Source: Minisyncoccota bacterium (GTDB lineage Bacteria; Patescibacteriota; Minisyncoccia; JBAYJV01). From it: 54,120 nucleotides of DNA. Positions within the stretch are counted from its first letter, which is position 1, and every line of letters starts with the position of its first letter. The stretch is taken from the NCBI GenBank assembly GCA_041664925.1, contig JBAYJV010000001.1, positions 1-54,120 on the forward strand. Reading direction: 5' to 3'. The notes under the pieces are model-generated. The model was not told where the DNA came from, did not search any database, and worked only from the letters and a program-made list of their open reading frames with translations. Of this stretch, positions 7,262 to 54,067 are shown piece after piece. The translations under genes and the position numbers were made by a program.

Positions 7262-7300
7262 CAAACAAAAAACCGCCGAACAGATACTCTGCTCAGCGGT
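7262..7300 (-). terminator. rho-independent terminator
   Basis: Minus strand reads ACCGCTGAGCAG..CTGTTCGGCGGT followed by TTTTTTGTTTG, just 3' of the 65-aa gene. Confidence 0.7.
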
Positions 7301-7348
7301 CTGAAAAGCAACTTTGCTTCCCTATAAGCTCGAAAACGGTTCCAAGTT

Positions 7349-7546
7349 TTAGGGAATCACAAGGAATCCACCCTGATCTTGGTTCCCTCGAACTCTAAGA
7401 GTGATCTTTTGACCATCTTTACGCGTAAAGACATAGTCTTCTCCGTTACCAAGGTCTTTGTATGCAATCGACTTAAGCCCAAGGAACTCTCCAAGCTTCG
7501 TCAATTGCTGACCATGCGATGGACTTGCAGCATTTATAATTTCCAT
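7349..7546 (-). CDS. small soluble orphan protein (GC-richer cassette)
   Basis: 65 aa. It has an SD (GGGAGGTG, 5 nt before the ATG), its own promoter and terminator, and higher GC than its neighbours. Confidence 0.6.
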   Translation of the reverse strand: MEIINAASPSHGQQLTKLGEFLGLKSIAYKDLGNGEDYVFTRKDGQKITLRVRGNQDQGGFLVIP

Positions 7547-7598
7547 GTTTCACCTCCCTGTCTCTTTTTACTTCCCAAGAACTCCCTCAACCCAAATA

Positions 7599-7627
7599 AT
7601 CCTACTACAAGAATATGCAATTGTCAA
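7599..7627 (-). promoter_or_regulatory. sigma70-type promoter
   Basis: Minus strand TTGACA - 17 nt - TAGGAT, about 50 nt upstream of the 7546 start. Confidence 0.6.
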
Positions 7628-7710
7628 CAAAAAAAATCCCAAATGAAATAATTTTGAAAGTTCGATTGTATTAATATTAAGAATGATTAATTTGTGTCAG
7701 TATTAAATCC

Positions 7711-8256
7711 ATGAAAAATAAAAAAATAGCGTTTATTGTCTTTCCTGTTTTAGTAGTCACATTATTGATTGCCGGAACAACATATGCGACCACGATCACG
7801 GGAAGAAATAGTATATTTAACACAATCGCGGATGCCATCGCTAATAAATTCAATTTAAATGTTTCCGATGTTCAAACTGTTATCGATGACACAATTGCTG
7901 CCGATGATCAAGAAATGGGAAAAAACCGCCCAGCGCGAGTTGACCCGCTTGTTCAAGCCATCAAAGATGGAAAACTAACTCAAGCTCAAGCCGATCTCAT
8001 TACTGCTAAAAGAGATGAGATGAGAACATCAATAAAAGATTTAAAAAATATGACTCGAGAACAAATGATCGCTGCCATGAAGACACGAACAGATTCTTTG
8101 AAGCAATGGGCGACAGATAATGGTATTCCTGAACAATATATTATGCCGTTTAGTGGTCTCGGTCACGGCCGTGGCGAAGGAAGAGGTCCAGGCGGACCAG
8201 GATTTAACGGAGACAATTTGCCCCCTCCATCCGATTTACAAGTTCCAAAAAATTAA
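7711..8256 (+). CDS. secreted hypothetical protein
   Basis: 181 aa. N-terminal signal/anchor 'KKIAFIVFPVLVVTLLIAGTTYA' and a Gly/Pro-rich C-terminus. It is the only plus-strand gene in the left 46 kb. Confidence 0.65.
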   Translation: MKNKKIAFIVFPVLVVTLLIAGTTYATTITGRNSIFNTIADAIANKFNLNVSDVQTVIDDTIAADDQEMGKNRPARVDPLVQAIKDGKLTQAQADLITAKRDEMRTSIKDLKNMTREQMIAAMKTRTDSLKQWATDNGIPEQYIMPFSGLGHGRGEGRGPGGPGFNGDNLPPPSDLQVPKN

Positions 8257-8269
8257 TTTACAGGTCAAA

Positions 8270-8306
8270 CAAAAACCCCAAAATACTGGGGTTTTTGTTT
8301 TTTTTA
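8270..8306 (+). terminator. rho-independent terminator
   Basis: AAAACCCCA-aaatac-TGGGGTTTT followed by a T-run. Confidence 0.75.
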
Positions 8307-8327
8307 AAATGCGGAGAGGGTGGGATT

Positions 8328-8347
8328 CCTGCCTGCCGGCAGGCAGG
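8328..8347. repeat. 20-nt perfect palindrome CCTGCCTGCCGGCAGGCAGG (T-loop insertion)
   Basis: gggatt[20 nt]cgaaccc here versus the uninterrupted gggattcgaaccc in the intact tRNA at 8471. Confidence 0.9.
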
Positions 8348-8376
8348 CGAACCCACGGAACCATTGCTGGTTCAAC

Positions 8377-8450
8377 AGTTTTTCCAACCACTTTTCTTTT
8401 AGAAAATGTTCGGATCCGCTCATTCATTTCATTGAAGTGAGCGGACAAGA
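8377..8450. repeat. 74-nt direct repeat R (copy A)
   Basis: 73/74 identical to 8818..8891. Contains the 8-bp hairpin TCCGCTCA..TGAGCGGA and is flanked by anticodon-loop remnants (TCTTG / AAAAACT on the minus strand). Confidence 0.9.
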
Positions 8451-8459
8451 GAATTAAAG

Positions 8460-8546
8460 CGGAGAGGGTGGGATTCGAACCCACGGAACCATTGCTGGTT
8501 CAACAGTTTTCAAGACTGTCACATTCGACCACTCTGTCACCTCTCC
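8460..8546 (-). tRNA. tRNA-Ser (anticodon UGA), class II with long variable arm
   Basis: 87 nt: GGAGAGGTGACAGAGTGGTCGAATGTGACAGTCTTGAAAACTGTTGAACCAGCAATGGTTCCGTGGGTTCGAATCCCACCCTCTCCG. Acceptor stem is 7 bp, anticodon arm ACAGT-CTTGAAA-ACTGT, T arm GTGGG-TTCGAAT-CCCAC. CCA is not encoded. Confidence 0.9.
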
Positions 8547-8970: not shown

Positions 8971-10713
8971 TTATTCAGTCACCCTTGCTTTTATTCTTTT
9001 TACTCCTGCACCGACTGATTCTTGTTTTACAATTTTAAAGCTTTTCAATTCAGATGTCAATTGAATATGCGGTCCTCGACAAATTTCACATGAATAAAAA
9101 TCGTCTTGCGTTCCATTGGAACTGATTCTATAAACACTCACTCTTTCTGGATATTTCTCTTTAAAAAATCCCAACGCTCCCATTTTTACGGCTTCATCAT
9201 AAGTCGTTTCAATTCTTTCAACTTTTAAATCTTCTTTTATTTTTTGATTAACAATATTTTCTACTTGTACAATTTCATCATTCGTTAAATTTCGTCCAAA
9301 GCTAAAATCAAATCTCAGTCTTTTTTCTGAAATATCCGACCCCATCTGTTTTACCTCTTCTCCTAAAACTTCTCTTAATGCCTTATGAAGCAAATGAGTC
9401 GCTGTGTGAAGTTTAATTTCATAATCTGTTGGGTTCTCTCGAAGCCCGCCTTCTTTTTTTTCAATAACTGTTTTTGAAACTGTCTGGTGTTCTTTTTTCG
9501 CTTTTTCAAATCCTTCTTGATCCAAAGTAAATCCTCTTTCCATCAAAAGTTCCTTGGTAAGCTCTGGAGGAAAACCAAAACTTTCGTAAAGCTTAAATGC
9601 TTCATCTCCCGAAAAGATTTTTCCTTCAATTTTAGCAAGTTTTTTTTCAAGTTCCTTCGTGCCATTTAAAAGCGCTTTTTTAAACGCTACCACTTCTTTT
9701 TCAATCACAGCGATAAGACTAGTTTTATCCTTTCCAATTTCTGGCCAAAAATCGCTATAGTTTTTTACAACCTCATCAATCAAATTAATATACCATCCAT
9801 CTTTAAGATTTAATTTCATCGCTGCCCTAACTGATCTTCGTAAAATTCGTCTTAAAATATAGCCTTCTTTTAAATTTGACGGCGCTAATCCCTCGGCGAT
9901 TAAAAAGACTGAGCCACGAATATGGTCAACAACCACCCTTTCTAGTTTTTTATTTTCCTCAGTAGCTTCATAATCATTCTTTCTTAAAATCTCTAATAAA
10001 GAAGAAAACAAATCAGTTTCAAAAACTGTTTCTTTTTTTTGCATTACCCTTGTTAATCTTTCCAGTCCCATGCCCGTATCAATGCCTTTTTTATCCAATG
10101 TTGCTAATCCACCATTTTTGTCTTGGTAGTATTCGTTAAAAACAACATTCCAAATCTCAGAATTATCTAAATAAAGTTCTGTTGTCGGTCCGCACGGACC
10201 TTCTTCTCCCGTTGGTCCCCAAAAATTATCTTCTCTGCCTCGCTTGGTAATCTGATTTTCTTCAATACCTAAATTAATCCAAATATCATAAGATTCTTTA
10301 TCAAAAGGCACTTCCTTGTCGCCCGCAAAAACCGTAACTTTTAAATCTTCTTTTTTTATCTCCAGCTCCTTTGTAAAAAAATCAAAGGCAAATCCAATCG
10401 CTTCTTTTTTACAATAAGCTCCGTTAAAACAAAAATTTCCCAACATTTCCAAAAATGTCAGGTGGTCTTTGTCGCCCACTTCATCTATATCAGAAGTACG
10501 AAAACATTTTTGAATCGTTGTGATCCTTTCACTGCCCAATTCCTGTTTTGCATCTCTTTTCCCTGAAAAATAATCCTTAAATTGCTGCATGCCTGCGGTC
10601 GTCAAAAGCACCGATGGATCAGTTACATCGATAAGCGAAGAAGAGGGCATTTGTTTGTGCCCACTTTCTGCAAAAAAACTTAAGAATTTTTTTCGCAATT
10701 CTCCAGATGTCAT
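8971..10713 (-). CDS. alaS: alanine--tRNA ligase, compact form without the C-Ala domain
   Basis: 580 aa. N-terminus 'FLSFFAESGHKQMPSSSLI..DPSVLLTTAGMQQFKDYF', 'GMGLERL', and editing-site 'HTATHLLH' and 'CRGPH'. The protein ends right after the editing domain. Confidence 0.9.
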   Translation of the reverse strand: MTSGELRKKFLSFFAESGHKQMPSSSLIDVTDPSVLLTTAGMQQFKDYFSGKRDAKQELGSERITTIQKCFRTSDIDEVGDKDHLTFLEMLGNFCFNGAYCKKEAIGFAFDFFTKELEIKKEDLKVTVFAGDKEVPFDKESYDIWINLGIEENQITKRGREDNFWGPTGEEGPCGPTTELYLDNSEIWNVVFNEYYQDKNGGLATLDKKGIDTGMGLERLTRVMQKKETVFETDLFSSLLEILRKNDYEATEENKKLERVVVDHIRGSVFLIAEGLAPSNLKEGYILRRILRRSVRAAMKLNLKDGWYINLIDEVVKNYSDFWPEIGKDKTSLIAVIEKEVVAFKKALLNGTKELEKKLAKIEGKIFSGDEAFKLYESFGFPPELTKELLMERGFTLDQEGFEKAKKEHQTVSKTVIEKKEGGLRENPTDYEIKLHTATHLLHKALREVLGEEVKQMGSDISEKRLRFDFSFGRNLTNDEIVQVENIVNQKIKEDLKVERIETTYDEAVKMGALGFFKEKYPERVSVYRISSNGTQDDFYSCEICRGPHIQLTSELKSFKIVKQESVGAGVKRIKARVTE

Positions 10714-10719
10714 AAAATT

Positions 10720-11013
10720 TTATCTTTTTAGGCTATCAATTCGCTGGGTTAATTCTTCAATTTTTCTACTTGCTGCCAAAACATAGTCAGTATTAAAATC
10801 CTTAATTCTTCTTTCGGTATTAGTTATTTCCATCTCTAAATTTTTTCTTTGTTGCTCTAAGTCATCTCTTCTTCGTTGCAACGGCATTAATTCGCTATTT
10901 TCCATGCGACTTTGCTCATCCCTTCTTCTTGTATATTCTTCTTCTGCTCTTGCTCTGTCTGCTTCTAATTTTCTAATTTCCTCAGCATTCGGGTCTTGTT
11001 GTTGATCATCCAT
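10720..11013 (-). CDS. coiled-coil protein
   Basis: 97 aa, highly charged with E/R/K/Q heptad-like composition. Lies 6 nt upstream of alaS. Confidence 0.5.
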   Translation of the reverse strand: MDDQQQDPNAEEIRKLEADRARAEEEYTRRRDEQSRMENSELMPLQRRRDDLEQQRKNLEMEITNTERRIKDFNTDYVLAASRKIEELTQRIDSLKR

Positions 11014-11118
11014 GTTTTTATAAAATACATATTAATCCCTTAATTTTATCAGAATTTATCTCTTTTTCAATCTTAAAATTTCTTAATTCATCAATTTTGC
11101 ATTTTTAATTTTAAACTT

Positions 11119-12258
11119 TTAACTTTCTATAATTCCGCCCCCTATCATAATTTCTCCTTTATAAAAAACAATACTTTGCCCCGGCGTAATCGCCCTCTGT
11201 AGTTCTTTGAAAGTAACTTTAATTTGATTTTTCCCCTTCGTCCGCTGAAGCTTTAGCGAAGGCGGATTGATCATTATCACACATTCCTGATCCGGCTGTC
11301 TATATCTAATTTTTGCTTGGCATTTTAATGGAAATTTCGGCTCTTCGCCTGAGATCCAGCTCAAATCTGAAGCAATCAATTCTTCTTCAAACAATGCCTC
11401 ATTTTTTCTTCCTTTGGCAACAATCAATTCATTTTTTTTAAAATCTTTTCCAATGACAAAATAGGGGATGCCCCCGCCAATTTTTATTCCTCTCCTTTGA
11501 CCAATGGTATAAGTTTCAAGACCATCATGTTTACCAATCACTTCCTTGTCAGTGGTCAAAATCTTCCCTGGCTTTGATTTAATATATTGTTTCAAAAAAT
11601 CTTCAACATTGACCTTGCCCATAAAACAAATTCCCTGAGAGTCAGGTTTATCCTTTACAGGCAAATCCCATTTTGCAGCAATTTTTCTTATTTCCGGTTT
11701 CGTATAATCGCCCACCGGAAAAAGGCAATGCTTCAGTTGCTTTTGCGTCAATGTCCATAAAAAATAACTCTGATCCTTATTCCCGTCCACCCCTTTTAAT
11801 AATGAGTATACATTCACTTTTAATTTTTCACTTTTAACTTTTAATTTTCGGCGAAGCCGAATGTAGTGGCCGGCGGCGACAAAGTCCGCTCCCATTTTGA
11901 GCGCTTGTTTTAGAAACATCCCAAACTTAATTTCCCGATTGCATTCAATATCAGGATTGGGCGTTATGCCTTTTTTATAGCCATCCAAAAAATAATTAAT
12001 CACCTTTTCTCGGTATTCTTTTGTAAAATCCCAGCTATAAAAAGGAATTGCTAATTTTGAAGCGACTTGTCTGGCGTCCTCTTCGTCTCTTTCCCACCCA
12101 CAACCGATTCCGCAGAGACCTTCCGAAGCCGCATCCCAACATTTCATAAAAACACCCACGACTTGATAGCCTTGTTCTTTTAATAAACCAGCCGTTACTG
12201 CCGAATCAACGCCACCAGAAAGTCCCACAAAAACTAATTGTTTTTTATCTTTTGACAT
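11119..12258 (-). CDS. mnmA: tRNA 2-thiouridine(34) synthase MnmA
   Basis: 379 aa. PP-loop 'GLSGGVDSAV', 'NKDQSYFLW', and C-terminal 'ITPGQSIVFYKGEIMIGGGII'. Confidence 0.9.
   Translation of the reverse strand: MSKDKKQLVFVGLSGGVDSAVTAGLLKEQGYQVVGVFMKCWDAASEGLCGIGCGWERDEEDARQVASKLAIPFYSWDFTKEYREKVINYFLDGYKKGITPNPDIECNREIKFGMFLKQALKMGADFVAAGHYIRLRRKLKVKSEKLKVNVYSLLKGVDGNKDQSYFLWTLTQKQLKHCLFPVGDYTKPEIRKIAAKWDLPVKDKPDSQGICFMGKVNVEDFLKQYIKSKPGKILTTDKEVIGKHDGLETYTIGQRRGIKIGGGIPYFVIGKDFKKNELIVAKGRKNEALFEEELIASDLSWISGEEPKFPLKCQAKIRYRQPDQECVIMINPPSLKLQRTKGKNQIKVTFKELQRAITPGQSIVFYKGEIMIGGGIIES
11234..11265. repeat. GC-rich palindromic element inserted in frame in mnmA
   Basis: ccccttcgtccgctgaagctttagcgaaggcgg has a CCTTCG..CGAAGG stem and encodes the extra 'PPSLKLQRTKG' segment, which E. 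coli MnmA lacks as I recall it. Confidence 0.55.
11814..11848. repeat. 7-nt periodic array inside the mnmA coding sequence
   Basis: cactttt|aattttt|cactttt|aactttt|aatttt encodes 'KLKVKSEKLKV', an insertion between the conserved HY.R and KDQSYFL blocks. Confidence 0.55.
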
Positions 12259-12319
12259 ATTTTAAATTATATTCCATATTATATATTTTTCAATAATCAT
12301 CGTCGTCTTGAGATAATAT

Positions 12320-12474: not shown

Positions 12475-12814
12475 AAAACAAAAGCCAGGGTTATCGTACC
12501 TGGCTCCGCGGAATCGGGAGGTATTCTTTACTTTCCCTATCCACTAACCTACGCTCGCTGACGACCCAACGAGTAGTTTTTCTCTTAGAAGAGGAAGGCC
12601 GGGTTTTTGAGCCGATCGTACACCGCATCACGCACCGTGTTACCATCCGGCTCGATGGGCCTGAATCGCTCAGGCAAGCGTACTGCCGTCAATGCGTTCT
12701 TCCGTCTAAAGTCCCCTTATGTAATCCGATACGGTCGTCTCGGGGGAGTCGAGACCATCCTCAAGATTGCGGAACGTGCGCCTTCTTTTCGGACGACCCA
12801 GTCTTCCATCATCA
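12475..12814 (-). ncRNA. unclassified structured RNA, about 340 nt (ncRNA-2)
   Basis: Consensus promoter at 12821-12848 and an intrinsic terminator (GCCAGG-9 nt-CCTGGC + TTTTGTTTT, 12475-12504). About 50% GC in a roughly 35% GC genome, with no credible ORF. Long-range complementarity between GGAAGACTGGGT (5') and ACCCGGCCTTCC (about 250 nt downstream). Confidence 0.6.
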
Positions 12815-12820
12815 CTTATC

Positions 12821-12848
12821 ATTATACTCCTTTTTTAAATAATGTCAA
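12821..12848 (-). promoter_or_regulatory. consensus sigma70 promoter (copy 1 of an identical 32-nt block, 12820-12851)
   Basis: Minus strand TTGACA - 16 nt - TATAAT. Confidence 0.75.
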
Positions 12849-12874
12849 TAGATAATGATTGATTTTATTGTAAT

Positions 12875-13004
12875 AAAAACAAAAGGGTCAGGATTTACGC
12901 ACCTGACCCGCAAGCGACAACCTAGTTACCGCTCGCATTTAAATGCGCCCCTAATCCGTAGGAGTACAGTGGTCTACTTCTATTATATCACATTAACAGA
13001 TATT
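12875..13004 (-). ncRNA. unclassified small RNA, about 130 nt (ncRNA-1)
   Basis: Consensus promoter at 13011-13038 and terminator GGGTCAGG-9 nt-CCTGACCC + TTTTGTTTTT (12875-12909). Internal hairpins are CGCATTTAAATGCG and GCGAGCG..CGCTTGC. Confidence 0.55.
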
Positions 13005-13010
13005 TATTCC

Positions 13011-13038
13011 ATTATACTCCTTTTTTAAATAATGTCAA
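13011..13038 (-). promoter_or_regulatory. consensus sigma70 promoter (copy 2 of the identical 32-nt block, 13010-13041)
   Basis: Minus strand TTGACA - 16 nt - TATAAT. The 32 nt are identical to 12820-12851. Confidence 0.75.
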
Positions 13039-13084
13039 TAGTTTTAATCTTTCTTGTCGAAATTATTGAGATTTAGAAAGATTT

Positions 13085-13121: not shown

Positions 13122-13152
13122 AAAAAGAGAGGATCCGTTCTTGGACCCTCTC
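13122..13152 (-). terminator. rho-independent terminator
   Basis: Minus strand GAGAGGGTCC-aagaac-GGATCCTCTC + TTTTT, 3' of the 159-aa gene. Confidence 0.7.
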
Positions 13153-13166
13153 GGCGTACTTTTCGT

Positions 13167-13646
13167 TTAGCCACCAGTTTCCATTCCGTAAGTCGCCGGC
13201 AAGCGATCGCGATGGACATAATAGAATTGCAACATTGGGTTTCCTCCAGACGTAGGAGACATAATGATTTGAAGAATGACAATGTTCTGTGACAAAAAAT
13301 CCCATCTATTGATTTTACTTAAATTAACATCATGAGTAATCTCGTCGGCATTTGAACGAAAAAGAGATTCAAAAAATATATCTATAAATGATTTTCCTTC
13401 TATTGATGTGTAGATTATGTCATCAACATATCTTACATCAAGAATGTTTACAACTCTGATAGCCTCTATGTCTTGATACAAAGCACTAGAAGCATTCACT
13501 TGATTCGTCGTGTCATTAAGTGTTGACCCAACAATTAATCCGAAAATAAACCAACCAGCCTGAGCTTTTGCCTGTACCACTGCGCCAAAGGTAATGCCCA
13601 GCACCAGCGCCAAACAAACTCCGACGACTAACAACCTCTTTTTCAT
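13167..13646 (-). CDS. secreted or membrane orphan protein (GC-richer cassette)
   Basis: 159 aa with signal peptide 'MKKRLLVVGVCLALVLGITFGAVVQAKA', an AGGAGGG SD, and its own promoter and terminator. Confidence 0.6.
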   Translation of the reverse strand: MKKRLLVVGVCLALVLGITFGAVVQAKAQAGWFIFGLIVGSTLNDTTNQVNASSALYQDIEAIRVVNILDVRYVDDIIYTSIEGKSFIDIFFESLFRSNADEITHDVNLSKINRWDFLSQNIVILQIIMSPTSGGNPMLQFYYVHRDRLPATYGMETGG

Positions 13647-13701
13647 CTGACCCTCCTGTTAGATTTTCTTTGTGAGATTTCCGAACATCAGAAAATCTTA
13701 C

Positions 13702-13743
13702 ATCTTGAGCGAAGTTCCGACTTATCGGAACGAGTCGAAAGAT
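13702..13743. repeat. hairpin-family element in a 5' UTR
   Basis: atcttgagcgaa[gttccga-ctta-tcggaac]gagtcgaaagat lies between the promoter (13765-13792) and the 13646 start. Confidence 0.5.
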
Positions 13744-13764
13744 TAATTTTTTGGAACTACCGCA

Positions 13765-13792
13765 ATCCTATCACATATTACTAAAATGTCAA
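13765..13792 (-). promoter_or_regulatory. sigma70-type promoter
   Basis: Minus strand TTGACA - 16 nt - TAGGAT, giving a 5' UTR of about 115 nt. Confidence 0.6.
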
Positions 13793-15439: not shown

Positions 15440-15462
15440 GTTTTTTCTGCTTCTGTTCCTTG

Positions 15463-46701: not shown

Positions 46702-46761
46702 TTGTAGAAAAGTTATTACGGCCTTTGCCATTAATCGGTGATACGATATGTTTTTCTATTT

Positions 46762-47373
46762 ATGAAAATTTACGAACTTAATCTCCATCTATCAACCAAG
46801 CTCGATGAAAAAGATCGAGACGCTATTTGGGAAAAAATTAAAAAAATCATTGATACAGAAAAAGGAGAAATTCTTGAACACAGTCCATCTAGACAAATCG
46901 AACTAGCCTATCCTATAAAAAAAGAAATTTATAGTTTTTATGGTCACCTGTTTTTTAAAGCTCTTCCAGAAACAATCCTCACTCTTGGAGATCTTTTGCT
47001 TCACGAAAAAACTATTCTTAGATATCTAATTTTTACTCATAAATCAATTTCTAAAAAACCAGTTTCCACAAGAATGTCGCGCAGAAGAGAGAGAGTCGGC
47101 GAAGAAAAGAAAGAGGAATCTAGGGGAGTTGCCAGCGAAATAGTGGAAGCTGAAACAAAACCAGTTAATATTAAAACAGAAAAACCTATTGCTGAGAAAA
47201 AAAGACCAGTAACAAAGAAAAAGATTGTTAAAAAAGTTAAAAAAGAAACTGTGGTAGAAAAAGAGGAAAAAACAGTTAAAGCAATTGAGAAAGAAAAGCC
47301 AAAAAAAGAGCCAAAATTCAAGTTAGAAGATATAGACAAGTCATTAGAAAAACTTTTAGAAAAAGAACTCTAA
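46762..47373 (+). CDS. rpsF: 30S ribosomal protein S6 with long Lys/Glu-rich C-terminal extension
   Basis: 'MKIYELNLHL...RQIELAYPIKK' is S6-like. I start at the ATG at 46762 rather than the ORF-track GTG at 46738. About 100 extra K/E-rich residues follow. Confidence 0.8.
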   Translation: MKIYELNLHLSTKLDEKDRDAIWEKIKKIIDTEKGEILEHSPSRQIELAYPIKKEIYSFYGHLFFKALPETILTLGDLLLHEKTILRYLIFTHKSISKKPVSTRMSRRRERVGEEKKEESRGVASEIVEAETKPVNIKTEKPIAEKKRPVTKKKIVKKVKKETVVEKEEKTVKAIEKEKPKKEPKFKLEDIDKSLEKLLEKEL

Positions 47374-48233: not shown

Positions 48234-48262
48234 TAAAAAAATAGGGAGCAGTTTGCTCCCTA
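48234..48262 (-). terminator. rho-independent terminator
   Basis: Minus strand TAGGGAGCA-aac-TGCTCCCTA + TTTTTTT. Confidence 0.75.
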
Positions 48263-48273
48263 CCGAAACTTCA

Positions 48274-48792
48274 CTAAAGAGAAAAAGTTTGTGCAATACT
48301 TCCTCTAGGTATGTGAAACTCGTAACGATCTGATCCACAGATAAAAGGCTTGAGCATAAGACAATTGAATGGAAAAGGAGCCGCAGGAACTCGAGAATGA
48401 ATCTCAAACACTCCATTTGCCCGATTTTCTTCGTAGACAAATGTTCTATCAGTGATTTCAACGCTTTCCATCTGATATATGTTCTCGCCAACGGCTGTAT
48501 AATAGAAGTAACAAGGCTTACTCTCTACAGAACCGCATCCTAAAAATAATGTTCCACTAGTACTCATTCCTCCGTTTCTAAGACTTGTTAATTCAACTTC
48601 TTTAATTGTTTGGTATTTTGTTGGCAGAATATTTGAAAAAACTACTGTCAATAAGAATCCTACAAAAGCGCACATAAACACACCGCAAACAAATTCACCG
48701 ACTATTTCACCTATACGCTTACAGTGATTCTTAAAAACTGATATTAATCCTATGAAAAAACCGATTACTCCTCCGGCTATAATAAAGAACAT
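48274..48792 (-). CDS. membrane-anchored orphan protein (GC-richer cassette)
   Basis: 172 aa with two N-terminal TM helices, an AAGGAGG SD, and its own promoter and terminator. Confidence 0.6.
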   Translation of the reverse strand: MFFIIAGGVIGFFIGLISVFKNHCKRIGEIVGEFVCGVFMCAFVGFLLTVVFSNILPTKYQTIKEVELTSLRNGGMSTSGTLFLGCGSVESKPCYFYYTAVGENIYQMESVEITDRTFVYEENRANGVFEIHSRVPAAPFPFNCLMLKPFICGSDRYEFHIPRGSIAQTFSL

Positions 48793-48815
48793 TTTTCCTC
48801 CTTTTGATGCATATT

Positions 48816-48843
48816 ATTTATATCATATATACATTGAAAATCA
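48816..48843 (-). promoter_or_regulatory. sigma70-type promoter
   Basis: Minus strand TTGATT - 16 nt - TATAAA. Confidence 0.5.
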
Positions 48844-48908: not shown

Positions 48909-48939
48909 TTCTAAATTCCAACTTCTAGCTTCTATATTC
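48909..48939. repeat. 7-nt periodic array
   Basis: ttctaaa|ttccaac|ttctagc|ttctata|ttc abuts the recA stop codon. Confidence 0.65.
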
Positions 48940-49990
48940 ATTCTTTCTTAACCTCAATCGCTGCGTAAACTTGTTTTTCGATTTCTTTAACTATTTTTGG
49001 ATTTTCTTTGAGAAAGTCGCGCGATGCTTCAACTCCTTGCCCGATTTTTTCACCATTAAAACTCAGCCAAGCGCCAGCTTTTTTTACAATATCATACTTG
49101 ATTCCTGTATAAATCAAATCTCCTAAACGAGAAATACCTTCGTTATATAGAATGTCGAATTCCGCAACTTTAAACGGCGGAGCAACTTTATTTTTTACTA
49201 CCTTTGCCTTTACTCTTGTCCCAATTACATCTTCGCCCTTCTTAAGTTGAGCTGCTTTTCTTACTTCTATTCTAACTGATGAATAAAATTTAAGCGCTTT
49301 TCCTCCTGGAGTCGTTTCGGGATTACCAAACATTACACCAATTTTCATGCGAATTTGATTGATAAAAATGACCGTTGTGCCACTCTTCGATGAAATCGCT
49401 GTTAGCTTGCGAAGCGCATGAGACATTAATCTCGCTTGCAGACCGATTTGCATATCCTCCATTCTTCCTTCAATTTCTGCTTGAGGCGTTAATGCCGCAA
49501 CCGAATCAATAACAATTAAAGGAATTGCTCCTGAACGAACCATTGTTTCAACAATATTTAAAGCTTGTTCTCCCGTATCAGGTTGAGAAATTAAGAGATC
49601 GTCAACTTTTACGCCAATTTTTTTAGCATATTCAGGATCAAGAGCATGCTCGGCATCTATATAAGCAACAACTCCGCCTTTTTTTTGAGCTTCAGCAACA
49701 ATGTGAAGCGCCAAAGTCGTTTTACCAGAAGATTCTGGACCATAAATTTCAATAATTCTTCCCTTTGGTATTCCTCCAACCCCCAGTGCTATATCTAAAG
49801 AAATTGAGCCAGTAGAAATACTGTCAATATCAACCTTTTGTGCTTCTCCTAGTTTCATGATCGATCCTTCTCCATATTTTTCCTTAATCTCGTCTAAAAT
49901 ACTTCTTATTGTCGCATCCATTCCCTTAGATGTGTCGATTTTTGCCTGTTGTTCGACTTTTCTTTTTGAAGCCATAGCTTTTAAATACAC
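48938..49990 (-). CDS. recA: recombinase RecA
   Basis: 'GSIMKLGE', '[38 protein letters not shown]' and '[11 protein letters not shown]'. The likely start is the ATG at 49975 (MASKRK). Confidence 0.95.
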
Positions 49991-49993
49991 AGT

Positions 49994-50347
49994 TTATTTA
50001 CTAATTTTTAAAATTTTGAAGCTTTCTGTAGTTTTTTTGCCAAATCTTGATTCTGCTTCGATGTTTAAAATATTAAGTTCCTGTCTGAGTAAAATCTTTT
50101 TTTCAAAATTCCCTTTACTATCAAAAGGAATGGGCTCGTCATTGATCTTCAAGAAATATGTGCGCCTCACCAGTCCCCTGACAACCAAATCTTCTGATGA
50201 AGTTTTAAATTCCTTTTTGTCTGGCTGACTAACTATAATTTTTGGAGGAAGCGTAACGCTCAAAAATTGAATCAGTAGATAAGTCACCACAAATATTCCT
50301 AGAATTGCCCAAAAAAGATTACTTAAAAAATATCTCTTAGAGTTCAT
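49994..50347 (-). CDS. membrane-anchored small beta-domain protein
   Basis: 117 aa with an N-terminal TM. It overlaps the ftsK stop by 11 nt. Confidence 0.55.
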   Translation of the reverse strand: MNSKRYFLSNLFWAILGIFVVTYLLIQFLSVTLPPKIIVSQPDKKEFKTSSEDLVVRGLVRRTYFLKINDEPIPFDSKGNFEKKILLRQELNILNIEAESRFGKKTTESFKILKISK

Positions 50348-52529
50348 TTTTTTCTCTTCTTTGGATTACTTCTCGCGCCTTTGATCCTTTTGCCGGTCCG
50401 ATCGTGCCATCAGCTTCAAGCATATCTAAAATGCGAGCTGCTCTTGCATAACCAACACGAAGCCTGCGTTGAAGAAGTGAAGCTGAGGCTTTTTTTGATT
50501 CAATAATAACCTTTTTCGCCTCTGCAAAAAGCTCATCTTCAAACTCGTAATTTTTAAATTCATCTATTTTAGTTTTTTCTTCTTCCCTGCCAAGCGCTAA
50601 ATCTAGAATCGTATCTTCTTCGTATTTCTGATTTTTAATAAAGTCAACAACTTTTTTAACCTCTCTTTCTAAAATAAATGCGCCTTGAATTCTTTTTGGC
50701 TTAGAACTATCGCTTGTCAAATAAAGCATGTCTCCGTTTCCTAAAAGTTTTTCAGCGCCTGCCATATCAAGAATTGTTCGTGAATCGACCTGAGAGGCGA
50801 CCTGAAAAGCCATTCGATTAGTGATATTCGCTTTGATTAACCCCGTAATAACTTCGACAGACGGTCTTTGAGTTGAAAGAATAAGATGAATACCAACAGC
50901 ACGCGCCATTTGAGCAAGTCTCACGACTGCTGCCTCCATCTCTCTCCCATAACTCATCATAATATCAGCTAACTCATCAATGACAATAACGATGTATGGT
51001 AATTGTCTATGTTTGTTTTCATTTGATTCTTTTTCCTGTCTGGTAAGTTTTGAAACTCTTTCGTTGTACGATAAAATATCGCGCGTACCTAAATCAGACA
51101 AAAGTTCGTAGCGTCTTTCCATTTCGGTTAGCGACCACTTGAGTGAATTGATGGCTTTTTGAGCTTCAACAATTACTGGTGTTAAAAGATGAGGAATGCC
51201 ATTGTAAGCTGTCAATTCAACTCTTTTCGGATCAACTAGAATTAAACGGAGAGTCCTAGGACTATTCTGATACAAAAACGCTGTCAATATATTATGAATC
51301 GCAACGCTTTTTCCTGATCCAGTCGCTCCAGCAACTAAAAGATGGGGCATTTTTGCTAAATTTGTATAAACCGCTTCACCGGCAACATTCCTTCCGATGG
51401 GAAGCGTTAAATAGTTTTTTTCTTTCTGATAGCCTTTTTCCTCAAGAAGATTTCTTAATTTAACTATGTGTTTTGATTTATTTGGCACTTCAACCCCAAC
51501 CCATGATTTTCCAGGAATCGGTGCTTCAATTCTCAGAGGATGGGCCGCCAACGCCAAAGACATATCATTTTGAAGAGCAACGATTTGAGAAAGCTTAATG
51601 CCTTTTGATGGTTTTAGGGTATATTGAGTGACTGTCGGACCAACGCTTACTTCTCCGGTGGTCACAGGAATATCAAAGTTTTCTAGGGTATTTTTAATAA
51701 TTTCGATATTCTGATTGATCTCTGGTTTTTGAACGCCTTCTTTATCTAAAAGCTCGAGACTCAAAAGGTCAAGGGTCGGGAAAATATACCCTTCTTCTTT
51801 CATATCAATTGCCACTGTTTTGACCTCAGCGCTTTCTTTGTTTTCTTTTTTGTTTTCGCTTAAGCCCCTAAGCCTAAAAATTGGATGGCGTAATATTCTT
51901 GTCTCCTGTTTTTTTTCGGCAAATTTTCCAAAAATTGATTCTTTTTTTTCATCAAGTCCCAGTTCTGGCTGTCTTTGTTGGTCTTTTTGTTCCCCATCCT
52001 GAGTCTCCTCTTCTTTGTCTTTCTTAAATAAAAATCCAAATGATAAATTAAGCGCAAGAACGGAAGAAACAAGGAAAAATGCCACCAAAATAATTGTTGC
52101 GCCGATTTTATCTAAATACCTAACAGCTAGTCCTCCCAGGGCATTTCCCAAAGCACCGCCAGAATGAAATAGCGCCCCAGCTAGACTCGAGAAAGAAAAA
52201 ATCAAAAGAAACATGCCTAATAATGTTACCCAAAGAGGTTTCTTAAAACGCCTTATAATCGAAAAAGCTCCAATAAAGAAAAAGAGAGGAATAGAAAATT
52301 TCCCCACACCCAAAAGCCAACCGACGCCTTGGATAAGTCGTGTGCCAACAACTCCAGCTTTTCCAAAAAAAGCAACAAGACTCAAAAGCGCTAGAGCGAA
52401 AAGAATAATAACAACAATAGCATTTTTTGCTTTTCGGCCTATAGCTTTATCCTTTTTCTTTTTTTCTTCAGGCTTGCCTTGATCTCTGTCTTTTTTAAAA
52501 TTCTCTTTATTTTTTTTCTTCCAAGACAT
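50337..52529 (-). CDS. ftsK: DNA translocase FtsK/SpoIIIE
   Basis: 730 aa with N-terminal TM helices, Walker A 'GATGSGKSV', Walker B 'VVIDELADIMM', and gamma-domain 'ASASLLQRRLRVGYARAARILDMLE'. Confidence 0.95.
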   Translation of the reverse strand: MSWKKKNKENFKKDRDQGKPEEKKKKDKAIGRKAKNAIVVIILFALALLSLVAFFGKAGVVGTRLIQGVGWLLGVGKFSIPLFFFIGAFSIIRRFKKPLWVTLLGMFLLIFSFSSLAGALFHSGGALGNALGGLAVRYLDKIGATIILVAFFLVSSVLALNLSFGFLFKKDKEEETQDGEQKDQQRQPELGLDEKKESIFGKFAEKKQETRILRHPIFRLRGLSENKKENKESAEVKTVAIDMKEEGYIFPTLDLLSLELLDKEGVQKPEINQNIEIIKNTLENFDIPVTTGEVSVGPTVTQYTLKPSKGIKLSQIVALQNDMSLALAAHPLRIEAPIPGKSWVGVEVPNKSKHIVKLRNLLEEKGYQKEKNYLTLPIGRNVAGEAVYTNLAKMPHLLVAGATGSGKSVAIHNILTAFLYQNSPRTLRLILVDPKRVELTAYNGIPHLLTPVIVEAQKAINSLKWSLTEMERRYELLSDLGTRDILSYNERVSKLTRQEKESNENKHRQLPYIVIVIDELADIMMSYGREMEAAVVRLAQMARAVGIHLILSTQRPSVEVITGLIKANITNRMAFQVASQVDSRTILDMAGAEKLLGNGDMLYLTSDSSKPKRIQGAFILEREVKKVVDFIKNQKYEEDTILDLALGREEEKTKIDEFKNYEFEDELFAEAKKVIIESKKASASLLQRRLRVGYARAARILDMLEADGTIGPAKGSKAREVIQRREKNEL

Positions 52530-52610
52530 ATTAAAATTTTAATAACTAAAACAACAAAACATAAACAAAACTTTGCGAATTTTTGATTTCTTCCTTATTT
52601 TACCACAATC

Positions 52611-52648
52611 ACAAAAAAACAAAAAGGAGATAAGTTCTGCTTATCTCC
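52611..52648 (-). terminator. rho-independent terminator
   Basis: Minus strand GGAGATAAG-5 nt-CTTATCTCC + TTTTTGTTTTTTT. Confidence 0.75.
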
Positions 52649-52657
52649 TGTCGTATT

Positions 52658-53416
52658 TCAGCTAGTTTTAAGCCTAATACTGATATTATTCCCGGTGATT
52701 TGAAAACCGGTATCCTTAAATAAATCTCTTATTTCTTGAGTAATCTCAATGTCGGTGCTCGAAATATTCAAATAACGAATTGCATTTGCCAATGAATTTC
52801 TAATCGATCCTTGAGTTAACCCAATAAATCGTTTTTGAGTTTCTTGTCTCAGATTTTCCAACCCGCCACTTTTCCAAAAATCGTAATCAAACATAAACCT
52901 GTTCTTTGGAAGTTCAAATGTCGCGCTTGCATCATAGATTAGTGTTCTCCCATCATTAGTAACCACCTCAATAGGCACATTCGGGTAAAGCCTGGTTACT
53001 TCCCGACCAGAAATTATTGTTGTATAAGGATTACGAAATCTAAGAAGGGACTCGGTCAGTATAATTCTTCCACTACCATCATTAATGACAACTGCGTTAT
53101 CTATAGACAGATCACTGACAGTTACAAAACCAAATAAGAAACTGGTTAAAAATACTATCAACGCAAAAAGTAGAGAAACTTTTCCTTGAATAAAGTTTGT
53201 TGTCTTGTATTTTTTTGCCTTTTCAAATCTGCTCCCAATTCCATAGATAATTGCTCCTACAATGATTCCAACAATAACACCACAAAAAAGACCGACGAAT
53301 ATTATGTTGCCTTTTTGTCCGCTATGCCCAAAAATAACAAACGACAAAATTGTAAGGAACAGCATTCCACATATTGCGCAAAGAACTGATACGACGATCT
53401 TCTCTCCCTTTGTCAT
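52658..53416 (-). CDS. membrane orphan protein (GC-richer cassette)
   Basis: 252 aa with 3 N-terminal TM helices plus a soluble C-terminal domain, a CGGAGGT SD, and a 5' UTR of about 115 nt. Confidence 0.6.
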   Translation of the reverse strand: MTKGEKIVVSVLCAICGMLFLTILSFVIFGHSGQKGNIIFVGLFCGVIVGIIVGAIIYGIGSRFEKAKKYKTTNFIQGKVSLLFALIVFLTSFLFGFVTVSDLSIDNAVVINDGSGRIILTESLLRFRNPYTTIISGREVTRLYPNVPIEVVTNDGRTLIYDASATFELPKNRFMFDYDFWKSGGLENLRQETQKRFIGLTQGSIRNSLANAIRYLNISSTDIEITQEIRDLFKDTGFQITGNNISIRLKTS

Positions 53417-53473
53417 CTCTCTTACCTCCGTTAGAGATTCTTAGCAAGCCCCTGCGAGATTAGAAGCTCTTAC

Positions 53474-53501
53474 GTCCTCCGTAGTTTCAACGAAGGAGGA
53501 C
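53474..53501. repeat. hairpin-family element in a 5' UTR
   Basis: GTCCTCC-gtagtttcaacgaa-GGAGGAC. Its left arm resembles half of the RAYT-associated REP (ttacg..tcctccgta). Confidence 0.45.
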
Positions 53502-53524
53502 AGTCCAATAAATCCCATATCCAC

Positions 53525-53553
53525 ATTCTAATACTAAATAAATTAAATGTCAA
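53525..53553 (-). promoter_or_regulatory. sigma70-type promoter
   Basis: Minus strand TTGACA - 17 nt - TAGAAT. Confidence 0.6.
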
Positions 53554-53580
53554 AAAAACCCTGTACCATCCGATACAGGG
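53552..53580 (-). terminator. rho-independent terminator
   Basis: Minus strand CCCTGTA-8 nt-TACAGGG + TTTTTTT. Confidence 0.7.
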
Positions 53581-53588
53581 CTTAATTC

Positions 53589-53762
53589 TCACTTTTTACT
53601 CTCTTCTCGCTCGAGATACTGAAGAATCGCTTCAACCACGAGATAGTTGACTGAGCGATCTCTCTTCTTTCCAAGCTTCATCAATCGCTCAACCGGCTTA
53701 AGATCCATCTTCGACTTAGGAATATAGATAGATAGGTTTTCTTCAGGACGCCTCTGGGCCAT
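53589..53762 (-). CDS. ribbon-helix-helix (CopG/Arc/MetJ-type) DNA-binding protein
   Basis: 57-aa ORF below the ORF-track cut-off: MAQRRPEENLSIYIPKSKMDLKPVERLMKLGKKRDRSVNYLVVEAILQYLEREESKK. The beta-strand 'LSIYIP' plus 'RSVNYLVVEAILQYL' fits the RHH pattern. GGAGGTG lies 5 nt before the ATG. Confidence 0.65.
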   Translation of the reverse strand: MAQRRPEENLSIYIPKSKMDLKPVERLMKLGKKRDRSVNYLVVEAILQYLEREESKK

Positions 53763-54018
53763 TTTTCACCTCCATTACTACGCTTTTCGTGTACTGAATA
53801 TTGGGATTGAGTAAAAGAATTACGAATTGAATAAAGCATGCGCCCATGCACAGAATCAAAACTCCAAAAAGAACTCGAGGTGACCAGTGAAAACGCTGAT
53901 TTGCGATAAATACCACTAAAGATGTTAGTATGGCAATACAATCAACAATCATATCGCGCTTCCTGTTTTTTGCCGATTCTTTTTTTCCCATAAACGCTTC
54001 TACTACCCTTGTTTTCAT
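53743..54018 (-). CDS. small two-TM membrane protein
   Basis: The ORF-track ORF is 53743..54048. The ATG at 54018 (MKTRVVE..) is preceded by GGAGG. It overlaps the RHH gene by 20 nt. Confidence 0.55.
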   Translation of the reverse strand: MKTRVVEAFMGKKESAKNRKRDMIVDCIAILTSLVVFIANQRFHWSPRVLFGVLILCMGACFIQFVILLLNPNIQYTKSVVMEVKNGPEAS

Positions 54019-54038
54019 AATATCTACCTCCATTACAC

Positions 54039-54067
54039 ATACTATCACTTGTAAAATTAATTGTCAA
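54039..54067 (-). promoter_or_regulatory. sigma70-type promoter
   Basis: Minus strand TTGACA - 17 nt - TAGTAT. Confidence 0.6.

Follow-up and report, generated by a model that had tools for sequence, protein, structure and literature searches.

Strong Shine-Dalgarno sequences mark orphan, probably moron-like gene cassettes among Shine-Dalgarno-less core genes of a Paceibacterota chromosome

The 54,120-nt stretch of DNA analyzed here (the window) raises the question of why ten orphan ORFs should each be preceded by a strong Shine-Dalgarno (SD) sequence when the conserved genes around them have none. The host is an ultra-small groundwater Paceibacterota (CPR) bacterium. SD strength was scored as the duplex energy between the 20 nt 5′ of each start and ACCUCCUUU, the canonical anti-SD, which may not be that of this genome. 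The ten orphan ORFs gave −10.6 to −13.0 kcal/mol, whereas the remaining window genes, 46 in all, ranged from +2.9 to −6.3 kcal/mol, with no window gene between −6.3 and −10.6 kcal/mol, and the GGAGG ended 4 to 8 nt from the ATG in all ten. The statement of the initial annotation that core genes are SD-less and the ten orphans GGAGG-led was thus confirmed, the two classes showing no overlap. On contigs of related lineages, 15 of 131 genes lay at or below −9 kcal/mol, three between −9 and −6.5, and 113 above; a check set beforehand, whether SD strength is bimodal or continuous, therefore came out as bimodal in the window and in the sampled relative contigs.

Strong SDs were confined largely to genes without a Pfam match. 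They preceded 0/28 Pfam-positive and 10/27 Pfam-negative genes in the window (p = 2.9e-4), and 1/72 and 14/59, respectively, in the relatives (p = 5e-5). The 27 SD-led starts from the window and relatives are complementary to the canonical tail over 5 to 10 nt (mean 7.3; 6 to 10 nt in 26), have an A directly 5′ of GGAGG in 22 cases, and are spaced 4 to 8 nt from the ATG without exception. Likewise, GGAGG-ATG-ORF spacing peaks at 4 to 8 nt, with almost no cases at 12 to 16 nt. Strong SDs occur on ∼18% of genes (about one-sixth in the window). Among ORFs of at least 100 aa, SDs are found on 0 to 14%, mostly 0 to 8%, in loci of distant Patescibacteria, and on 25 to 69% in Bacillota loci in the same comparison.

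The SD-less class is typified by two minus-strand blocks. The first (48938–52529) consists of ftsK (50337–52529; +1.0 kcal/mol), a 117-aa gene (49994–50347; −2.9), and recA (48938–49975; ∼0), and its orthologues in L087, L090, and L092 are likewise SD-less. The second (8971–12293), SD-less also in L094, L097, and L100, consists of mnmA (11119–12258), a 97-aa gene, and alaS (8971–10713). The mnmA promoter, TTGAAA-16-TATAAT, ends 7 nt from the ATG, so that the transcript is probably leaderless. The distance from the −10 box to the ATG is similarly short in other core genes that head operons (rpsF, 9 nt; the PKD gene, 11 nt; abiEi, 12 nt), and is 20 to 118 nt in the cassettes. Pfam searches of window proteins, or of their orthologues in relatives, matched RecA, FtsK, AlaS, MnmA, BacA/UppP, PilB, PilC (T2SSF), PilM, S6, SSB, S18, NUDIX, and Y1_Tnp (RAYT). 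Thus, the core gene names given initially stand for recA, ftsK, alaS, mnmA, uppP, pilB, pilC, rpsF, ssb, rpsR, and the NUDIX and RAYT genes, but not for "abiEi" (5910–6521), which had no Pfam match; AbiEii was matched at 4636–5913. The starts of recA, rpsF, and the response regulator are probably ATG 49975, ATG 46762, and ATG 40063, which leaves the SD result unaffected. The major pilin may be an exception, a core gene that uses an SD, as AAGGAG lies 8 nt 5′ of its second ATG (30842), from which the protein would carry a classic MRG|FTLIEL prepilin leader.

The ten orphan ORFs form nine units, and an intrinsic terminator was found for each, as had been claimed. The near-consensus promoter also attributed to all nine is present in eight, as a sigma-70-like TTGACA-like/TATAAT-like pair spaced 16 to 17 nt (10–11 of 12 positions matched in seven units, 9 of 12 in the weak promoter of the 48274 unit), but not in the 15463 unit, where an extended −10 (TGgTATAAT) is accompanied by a poor −35. 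Co-orientation with neighbors was borne out, all ten ORFs being on the minus strand with 52 of the 56 window genes. Higher GC holds as a shift in the median (0.41 versus 0.35, p = 1.7e-4; GC3, 0.39 versus 0.27), but the ranges overlap (0.36–0.51 versus 0.30–0.41) and four orphans (13167, 40330, 48274, and 52658) are core-like. The description of the products as mostly membrane or secreted proteins fits the six of ten with convincing hydrophobic segments. Start regions fold more stably in cassettes (median −6.2 versus −4.5 kcal/mol, p = 0.03), and in 8 of the 27 cassettes from window and relatives, whose ORFs are unrelated, a motif AGTTCT(T)...ACAA lies between the −10 box and the SD.

For eight cassettes, a comparison could be made with contigs of three related lineages, the core of which is 79 to 90% identical to the window at the nucleotide level. 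Cassette 1 (7270–7627) encodes a soluble 65-aa protein (7349–7546; −12.2 kcal/mol) behind promoter TTGACA-17-TAGGAT (7627–7599), a ∼45-nt leader, and SD GGAGGTGA, and closes with terminator 7302–7270. It is precisely missing in L094, where the junction is a direct repeat, TTTTTTGTT[G/T][A/G]CAA. In L100 an orthologue (77% amino acid identity, dN/dS 0.44) retains the SD, and promoter, UTR, and terminator are 90 to 92% identical, with flanking genes at 79 to 85%. Cassette 2 (13127–13792; ORF 13167–13646, 159 aa, N-terminal signal/TM segment; −10.8 kcal/mol) has promoter TTGACA-16-TAGGAT (13792–13765), a ∼110-nt leader, SD AGGAGG, and terminator 13152–13127. It is missing in L094 and L097, and the L100 orthologue (60% amino acid identity, dN/dS 0.28, SD AAAGGAGG retained) lies on the opposite side of ncRNA1. 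Cassette 3 (15415–15845; ORF 15463–15807, 114 aa, very basic, one TM segment; −12.1 kcal/mol), with its extended −10 at ∼15842–15834, SD AAGGAGG, and terminator 15439–15415, is replaced in L094 and L097, together with an SD-less bestrophin-like gene (15938–16795), by a Y1_Tnp (RAYT) gene.

Cassette 4 (40294–40753; ORF 40330–40692, 120 aa, two TM segments; −12.5 kcal/mol) has promoter TTGACA-16-TAAACT (40753–40726), leader motif AGTTCTTAAAAAAACAA, SD AAGGAGGAGG, and terminator 40319–40294. In L082 this slot is occupied by another, unrelated ORF (145 aa), which likewise has a promoter (TTGACA), an SD (GAGGAGG), and a terminator of its own; the two loci share only the junctions, a T-tract plus TTGACA (5′) and a T-tract (3′). 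Cassette 5 (40938–41555; ORF 41003–41488, 161 aa, acidic, six Cys, GC 0.51; −13.0 kcal/mol), with promoter TTGACT-17-TGcTATAAT (41555–41527), SD AAGGAGGT, and hairpins/terminator at 40961–40938, has a 159-aa orthologue in L082 (75% amino acid identity) with conserved promoter and SD; dN/dS in this comparison is 0.16 versus 0.01 to 0.07 for neighboring core genes. Cassette 6 (41747–42581; ORF 41797–42483, 228 aa, C-terminal CPTC...CKGC, GC 0.46; −12.2 kcal/mol) has promoter TTGATT-17-TGgTATAAT (42581–42553), a ∼65-nt leader, SD AAGGAGG, and terminator 41776–41747. It is bracketed by minus-strand direct repeats of a ∼88-nt REP-like double hairpin (GGAGG-loop-CCTCC), at 42621–42708 upstream and 41582–41670 downstream (hairpins 41639–41673 and 41617–41587), which are 80% identical by blastn self-comparison (42708–42621 versus 41670–41582). 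L082 lacks the cassette and has one repeat copy at the empty site. In a search of 1.8 billion representatives, the cassette 6 protein had a single distant homologue (P0004, 41% identity, E 3e-18); at that locus (L102), the terminator is homologous to that of cassette 6 and the next gene is also SD-led.

Cassette 7 (48240–48840; ORF 48274–48792, 172 aa; −11.8 kcal/mol), with promoter TTTTCA-16-AATAAT, SD AAAGGAGG, and terminator 48264–48240, encodes a protein matching phrog_8077 (E 6e-13), with two N-terminal TM segments and a Cys-rich domain. One homologue (55%) in L105 retains SD and terminator; in L087 to L089 the slot after recA holds a Gp49/HTH TA pair and 63-aa and 309-aa genes, all SD-less. 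Cassette 8 (52625–53553; ORF 52658–53416, 252 aa, three TM segments; −10.8 kcal/mol) has promoter TTGACA-17-TAGAAT (53553–53525), a ∼100-nt leader with a REP-like hairpin, SD GGAGGT, and terminator 52649–52625. In L087/L088 a Band_7 gene of 374 aa (GC 0.48, SD AAAGGAGG, −11.8 kcal/mol) occupies this position upstream of ftsK, with homology resuming from window position 52706. Bicistronic cassette 9 (53559–54067), whose slot lies outside all relative contigs compared, has promoter TTGACA-17-TAGTAT (54067–54039), a terminator at 53580–53559 (hairpin plus T7, after 53589), and two overlapping ORFs at −10.6 kcal/mol each: 53743–54018 (91 aa, two TM segments, SD GGAGGT) and 53589–53762 (57 aa, RHH/Arc/RelB-like, SD GGAGGTGA), the latter with weak RHH matches to PF01402 (E 3e-3), phrog_3180 (E 9e-5), and NF048017 (E 8.5e-5).

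In sum, three of the eight comparable cassettes (1, 2, and 6) are cleanly missing in at least one relative, four (3, 4, 7, and 8) are swapped for unrelated genes, two of which are SD-led, and three are conserved in one relative (60–77% amino acid identity) while diverging faster than the core. Position is therefore not conserved across the lineage, and the proposal of variably present mini-cassettes is supported. Breakpoints fall at terminator T-tract/−35 junctions, with microhomology of the TTTTTTGTTG type, or at REP-like repeats. We found no recombinase or defined att site tied to the cassettes and no integrase among the window proteins searched, so the putative mechanism of mobility is read from the breakpoints only.

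As part of the explanation favored below, we consider the ten ORFs to be probably real protein genes. Across the three orthologue pairs, indels are multiples of three and dN/dS is 0.16 to 0.44 (core, 0.01–0.12); selection on these ORFs is purifying but relaxed. It is very improbable that some or all are chance ORFs within GC-richer ncRNA units with strong promoters and terminators. Such a reading would draw on the scarcity of stops in GC-rich DNA of an AT-rich genome, the two promoter/terminator-bounded ncRNAs in the window (12475–13041), the low-confidence AlphaFold models, and the seven ORFs without an orthologue, which are taken as coding from their SD/ATG geometry, their length, and the hydrophobic segments. 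It is opposed by the selection and indel patterns, the uniformly placed GGAGG, the multi-TM hydrophobic patterns in six ORFs, the phrog family match, and lengths of 57 to 252 aa, far above those of adjoining out-of-frame ORFs. A dedicated high-expression regulon, the other reading offered initially, is a candidate only, as the sequencing runs that hold the window sequence are all DNA metagenomes.

Could the cassettes instead have come in recently from donors that use SDs (phages, plasmids, or host bacteria, for example), with GGAGG and the higher GC as undecayed donor traces rather than features this cell requires? Elevated mean GC and GC3, the phrog_8077 and Arc/RelB-like matches, and patchy distribution are consistent with this, but we regard it as unlikely. 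All three orthologue pairs, despite a dS of 0.3 to 1.0, have the same or almost the same SD core; promoters, boxA-like leaders, and terminators are conserved and of the lineage's type; and four orphans have native GC. Viral contigs and GenBank phages yielded no relatives of the orphans, and no homologues were found beyond a handful of similar metagenome contigs. Moreover, the genes in these slots that are certainly mobile (Gp49/HTH, AbiEii/DUF6922, DGR, RAYT, and a 6.5-kb metal island) are all SD-less and AT-rich, so the foreign origin suggested initially is not borne out. Also doubtful, and rated lower still, is a translationally co-regulated set served by a second initiation channel, in which anti-SD access, or a factor that is anti-SD-like or binds leaders, would switch the orphans jointly, perhaps upon host contact, by analogy with bS21-dependent control of rpsU, the one SD-bearing gene, in Flavobacterium. 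The strong, geometrically uniform SDs and the shared leader motif would suit such a set, and Bacteroidia, whose background is SD-blind, use a strong SD for regulation (PMC9976891, PMC13000453). However, bS21 is often missing in Parcubacteria (PMC9297842), so that this lineage may lack the Bacteroidia mechanism; the strong SD is on nearly a fifth of genes rather than one, and cassette content varies among close relatives, unlike a conserved regulon.

The moron concept is reportedly that of Hendrix and Juhala. Like the cassettes, phage morons are single accessory genes with their own promoter and terminator between genes adjacent in relatives, often of GC unlike their flanks and horizontally exchanged (PMC3594210). 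The cassettes differ in lying on a chromosome between housekeeping operons, away from any phage genes, in their strong SD against an SD-less background, and in their number per genome. Neisseria minimal mobile elements and other "flexible islets" are variable genes between conserved flanks with no dedicated recombinase, exchanged presumably via transformation and homologous recombination. The cassettes share this recombinase-free variability but are single promoter-to-terminator modules with T-tract/−35 breakpoints in a CPR bacterium. Integron cassettes are promoterless, carry attC sites, and lie beside an integrase; they too are small, mostly orphan, strain-variable single-gene units in series, but those described here bring promoters with them, and the hairpins they carry are ordinary terminators, unrelated in sequence. 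In Bacteroidia, the anti-SD is sequestered by bS21/bS18/bS6 and rpsU alone has a strong SD (PMC7797042, PMC9976891, PMC13000453, PMC13000457). As here, conserved genes are SD-less with A-rich, G-poor upstream regions and the strong-SD minority is small, but that minority is one autoregulated ribosomal protein gene rather than a large, changing orphan set, and the promoters here are sigma-70 TTGACA/TATAAT. Of the same broad lineage is the anti-SD-less subgroup of Parcubacteria, with SDs scarce in conserved genes as here; the paper on it mentions no class of SD-led accessory genes (Tsurumaki et al. 2022, RNA 28:1041, PMC9297842). About half of Parcubacteria have reportedly lost the CCUCC motif of 16S rRNA (PMC9297842), and were it absent in this lineage the cassette SD could not work as proposed; the conserved, correctly spaced SDs argue that the anti-SD is probably retained.

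Taken together, we think it reasonably probable that these are autonomous, moron-like accessory cassettes and that the core genes of the lineage use SD-independent, partly leaderless initiation. Each module would comprise a sigma-70 promoter, a 15- to 110-nt leader, a strong canonical SD predicted to pair with the 16S tail ...CACCUCCUU, an ORF, and an intrinsic terminator, placed at junctions between conserved operons. The ORFs are fast-evolving and restricted to very few lineages; roughly half of them specify small membrane proteins. Three points are inferred from sequence: reading of the SD by an intact anti-SD, expression of the cassettes, and their mode of movement. Modules would turn over fast by insertion, deletion, swapping, and shuffling, most likely through recombination after DNA uptake. 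Compensation for structure and GC would explain the SD only in part, given four cassettes of core-like GC and a modest folding difference. Conserved genes, here and in Paceibacteria generally, would initiate without SD pairing, from leaderless transcripts or G-poor, A/U-rich leaders, whereas the cassettes, being leadered, somewhat GC-richer, and more structured, would rely on a strong SD.

The genes of the window, a stretch of 54 kb with ~36% GC, lie nearly all on the minus strand, and the housekeeping names given in the initial annotation were borne out by Pfam. That annotation had also proposed two classes of gene start, with ten orphan ORFs set apart from the conserved genes by a Shine-Dalgarno (SD) sequence. 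For 56 non-overlapping genes, the 20 nt upstream of each start were folded against ACCUCCUUU. The resulting duplex energies (dG) of the ten orphans, -10.6 to -13.0 kcal/mol, are separated by an empty gap from those of the other 46 genes, which range from +2.9 to -6.3 kcal/mol, so that the proposed division is upheld. None of these 46 genes has a strong SD, and its use by 10/56 genes, all of them orphans, is not confined to rpsU or to very few regulatory cases. In each of the ten orphans, 4 to 8 nt separate the end of the GGAGG from the ATG. The SD-led starts are found in none of the 28 Pfam-positive genes and in 10 of the 27 Pfam-negative genes (p = 2.9e-4). Upstream of the non-orphan genes the sequence is A/T-rich, with G at 4 to 11% from -14 to -1, T at 61% at -1, and A at 48 to 65% at -2 to -5, -8, and -12.

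Two conserved genes of the window have start regions that merit separate description. In the major pilin, AAGGAG lies 8 nt before another in-frame ATG (30842-30862, minus strand), and a start at this second codon would yield the short leader that is classic for prepilins, MRG|FTLIEL. Should the second ATG be the true start, the pilin would be alone among the conserved genes here in using an SD. The longest ORF of ribosomal protein S6 (46738-47373, plus strand) begins at a GTG that corresponds to GTG-ATG in L087, one of the fetched contigs of relatives, and the true start is probably the ATG at 46762. With 203 to 211 aa in the window and its closest relative versus 159 to 179 aa in three more distant relatives (L090, L092, and L093), S6 carries a lineage-specific C-terminal extension.

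The ten orphans form nine units (cassettes 1-9), all on the minus strand, whose neighbors include recA, ftsK, alaS, mnmA, the pil genes, and ribosomal protein genes. Each of the nine units is closed by a GC-rich hairpin followed by a T-run, as had been claimed. The accompanying claim of a near-consensus promoter stands for eight units, which have TTGACA-like and TATAAT-like boxes spaced by 16 to 17 nt that match at 9/12 positions or more (seven at 10/12 or more), and fails for the unit at 15463, which has an extended -10 box only. The claim of higher GC content stands for the averages (median GC 0.41 vs 0.35, p = 1.7e-4; GC3 0.39 vs 0.27; both p < 2e-4) and not for every gene, as the ranges overlap and four of the ten orphans are core-like. 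Similarly, the statement that most of the products are membrane or secreted proteins reduces to clear hydrophobic segments in six of the ten.

Searches of the ten orphans returned little. Pfam gave no match above threshold, and across Pfam, PHROGs, PADLOC, and NCBIfam the only matches were phrog_8077, to the 172-aa ORF of cassette 7, and weak ribbon-helix-helix (RHH) matches. The latter belong to the 57-aa protein of cassette 9 (53589-53762), whose RHH/RelB-like matches lie under the curated cut-offs and whose NCBIfam match is weak and RelB-like. Its partner in this candidate type II toxin-antitoxin pair, the 91-aa protein (53743-54018), has two TM segments and no family, and PADLOC gave no match for any of the ten. 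The 228-aa ORF of cassette 6 had no relative among 5.8 billion proteins in a word search and one, 41% identical, among 1.8 billion representatives in a full HMMER search. For the 172-aa ORF, a single homologue (55%) was found. The homologues of both ORFs keep a strong SD or SD context and a terminator; for the 228-aa homologue (locus L102), the terminator is homologous and the next gene is also SD-led. At L102 259-320, the SD AAAGGGGGAG lies upstream of a 12-codon uORF whose stop is 20 nt before the SD-less main start, an arrangement that points to reinitiation coupling or, alternatively, to an N-terminus that is frameshifted. Scans of viral contigs with three orphans and tblastn against GenBank phages found no relatives. 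AlphaFold2 models of the 228-aa and 172-aa orphans, built from two-sequence alignments, were unusable (pLDDT of 38 and 43).

The closest matches of PilB among species-representative genomes are Paceibacteria/Patescibacteria MAGs with only 43 to 47% identity, and relatives closer than this are metagenome contigs only. A search of sequence runs found the window in two groundwater DNA metagenomes and in none other. The window is thus assigned to an uncultivated Paceibacterota (CPR) bacterium of groundwater. Comparison relied on contigs of three lineages with core genes 79 to 90% identical at the DNA level, found via RNase J, RecA, and the 90% clusters of AlaS, UppP, and the PKD protein, and on two more distant lineages with RecA at 83 to 84%.

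These contigs reveal that the slots turn over. Cassette 1 (65 aa, 7349-7546) is precisely absent from L094 and present in L100. Cassette 2 (159 aa, 13167-13646) is absent from L094 and L097, and L100 carries a diverged copy on the opposite side of the non-coding unit ncRNA1. At cassette 3 (114 aa, 15463-15807), L094 and L097 have a RAYT gene in place of the cassette and its bestrophin-like neighbor. At cassette 4 (120 aa, 40330-40692), the slot in L082 is taken by an unrelated ORF of 145 aa that has a promoter (TTGACA), an SD (GAGGAGG), and a terminator of its own, while cassette 5 (161 aa, 41003-41488) is conserved in the same contig. Cassette 6 (228 aa, 41797-42483) is bracketed in the window by a direct repeat, an ~88-nt REP-like element of which L082 has one copy and no cassette. 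In place of cassette 7 (172 aa, 48274-48792), L087-L089 have a Gp49/HTH toxin-antitoxin pair and two further genes, and in place of cassette 8 (252 aa, 52658-53416), L087 and L088 have a GC-rich, likewise SD-led Band_7 gene. The 252-aa orphan was considered as a homologue of this gene in L087 and rejected, the BLASTP match (E 0.016) covering the TM region only. No relative spans the slot of cassette 9 (91 aa and 57 aa).

Where cassettes 1, 2, and 6 are absent (L094 or L082), the flanks are joined directly. The readable breakpoints lie directly 3′ of the terminator T-tract and at the -35 box, with TTTTTTGTTG-type microhomology common to both sides. Contigs of the two metagenomes aligned to the region gave joints with sides of at most 32 nt at repeats, too weak for calling cassette-less variants. 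No orthologue was found for seven of the ten orphan ORFs. The three orthologue pairs have 60 to 77% protein identity versus 80 to 98% for neighboring genes and dN/dS of 0.16 to 0.44 versus 0.01 to 0.12 for the core, and the SD is retained in each pair. In cassette 1, identity is 90 to 92% for the promoter, leader, and terminator, higher than for the flanking coding sequence.

Non-coding sequence varies as well. The tandem units ncRNA1 and ncRNA2 (12475-13041, minus strand; L094 7793-8272, L100 1414-2804, L097 11471-11832) share an identical 32-nt perfect-consensus promoter, and Rfam, whose sole match in the window is tRNA-Ser, has no match for either. The ~340-nt ncRNA2 is 79 to 84% conserved in two relatives. 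One relative lacks ncRNA1 and a third has neither unit, so that the ncRNAs turn over like cassettes. The idea that ncRNA2 mimics the anti-SD (ACCTCCC) was dropped, as the segment is missing in relatives. Additionally, L082 lacks ~150 nt that lie between two terminators in the window (40790-40937, minus strand) and contain weak promoter-like sites but no ORF; this segment may be a decayed-cassette remnant or a small RNA.

The SD survey was extended to 131 genes of the relatives, using the gene calls supplied with the contigs. Strong pairing (dG of -9 or lower) is seen in 15 of them, pairing between -9 and -6.5 in three, and weaker pairing in the remaining 113. Apart from the Band_7 gene, the strong-SD group consists of 14 ORFs of 65 to 171 aa without a Pfam match, and 71 of the 72 Pfam-positive genes lie above -9. 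No SD precedes any of the ribosomal, RNA polymerase, FtsK, RecA, AlaS, MnmA, PilB, and similar genes. The cassette hot spots also contain clearly mobile accessory genes, including toxin-antitoxin pairs, a DGR (bAvd and reverse transcriptase), RAYT, GIY-YIG, and a 6.5-kb metal-related island. These, too, are AT-rich and SD-less, and accessory status alone is therefore no predictor of an SD, which is instead a mark of the small-orphan class. The DGR, with both genes SD-less, occupies the slot after recA in a more distant relative (L090 11114-15530) and adjoins a 261-aa ORF with GC of 0.54 and two small ORFs of 88 and 125 aa that are rich in Cys and SD-led. The island is found in one relative (L100 7044-13644), between a GIY-YIG/tRNA-Ser element and a 181-aa gene, and encodes DUF5320, two Nitro_FeMo-Co dinitrogenase-cofactor-binding-like proteins, CbiA/ParA-Fer4, cation efflux, DUF134, and YibE_F proteins, all SD-less.

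When 27 SD-led starts were pooled, each matched the complement of the canonical 16S tail over 5 to 10 nt (26/27 over 6 to 10 nt), mostly as AAGGAGG(T) and with a spacing of 4 to 8 nt in every case. The GGAGG-to-ATG spacing peaks at 4 to 8 nt in the window and close relatives, with a weak peak in distant Patescibacteria. In a crude ORF survey, the share of strong-SD ORFs was 0 to 14% (mostly 0 to 8%) in distant Patescibacteria pilus loci versus 25 to 69% in Bacillota loci obtained with the same query, and SD-less core genes are therefore a trait of the whole class. In eight of the 27 starts, which belong to unrelated ORFs, the leader has a loosely boxA-like motif, AGTTCT(T)...(A)ACAA, after the -10 box and ahead of the SD (window 40705-40725 and 7575-7590; L094 ~20825-20850; L095 ~19560-19585; L100 1780-1805; L082 3225-3250).

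Three known systems resemble parts of this picture. Phage morons turn over as single promoter-to-terminator units with clean empty sites and unrelated genes per slot (PMC3594210), and the turnover of the cassettes is this pattern except in location. Like morons, the units have their own terminators (9/9) and promoters (8/9) and are inserted between genes adjacent in relatives (cassettes 1, 2, and 6). Morons also differ from their flanks in base composition; here, GC content is higher on average, yet within the core range for four of ten orphans. Unlike morons, the units sit among housekeeping genes and lack viral-contig or phage-record matches. Integron cassettes differ in that the units here have their own promoters, their hairpins are unrelated terminators, and Pfam found no integrase among the window proteins run, a set without the 1624-aa ORF and some few genes whose names come from orthologues.

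The third parallel is the SD-blind translation of Bacteroidia, in which the anti-SD is sequestered by bS21/bS18/bS6 and one gene, rpsU, bears an SD. The SD-less conserved genes of the window (46/46) and relatives agree with this, whereas strong SDs in 10/56 window genes and 15/131 genes of relatives, not just in rpsU, do not. Bacteroidia also have a Kozak-like enrichment of upstream adenine in place of an SD, for which the adenine-rich positions upstream of the non-orphan genes would be a candidate counterpart. About half of Parcubacteria are reported to be without the 16S CCUCC motif, and bS21 to be often absent (Tsurumaki et al. 2022). A search of all fetched loci for the conserved motif of the 16S 3′ end found nothing real, and the prfB frameshift SD was rejected as a proxy for an intact anti-SD, as the "RF-1" gene of L097 is an ArfB-like GGQ protein and uninformative. 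The correctly spaced SDs at 27 starts, kept in the three orthologue pairs, would point away from a tail lacking CCUCC; if the tail does lack it, the data would imply an unknown reader of SD sequences. Our literature search found no paper on CPR bacteria in which accessory genes are described as SD-led against an SD-less background.

The -10 box lies 7 to 12 nt from the ATG in several operon-head core genes (mnmA, rpsF, the PKD gene, and abiEi), which fits leaderless or near-leaderless mRNAs; the core genes probably initiate independently of an SD and in part without a leader. Because the -10 boxes of the cassettes are 20 to 118 nt upstream and their start regions fold somewhat more stably than those of other genes, we read the cassettes as putative leadered, self-contained expression modules that would need and keep a strong SD. 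Candidate routes for their inferred movement are recombination in the conserved flanks after DNA uptake, microhomology at the T-tract/-35 junctions, and the REP-like repeats. The full proposal, which we regard as possible but rather unlikely, is that each cell has two initiation regimes, an SD-independent, partly leaderless core and a large, fast-turnover orphan set of promoter-to-terminator modules that depends on strong SDs and could be translationally insulated or switched as a block.

SD use is normally treated as a genome-level property; here, it draws a clean line between conserved genes and young accessory ones in a single genome and in its relatives. Judging from the predicted expression signals, moron-like, self-expressing cassettes would not be restricted to phages. 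If the split is functional, this would be a natural case of SD-dependent and SD-independent initiation coexisting on one ribosome, and gene callers, in which a single RBS type is assumed for each genome, may set wrong starts for one of the two classes or overlook it, an error that could be corrected. The orphan genes of CPR bacteria are thought to mediate their host-dependent lifestyle, and a functional split would allow the flexible gene pool of these organisms to be marked from sequence alone.
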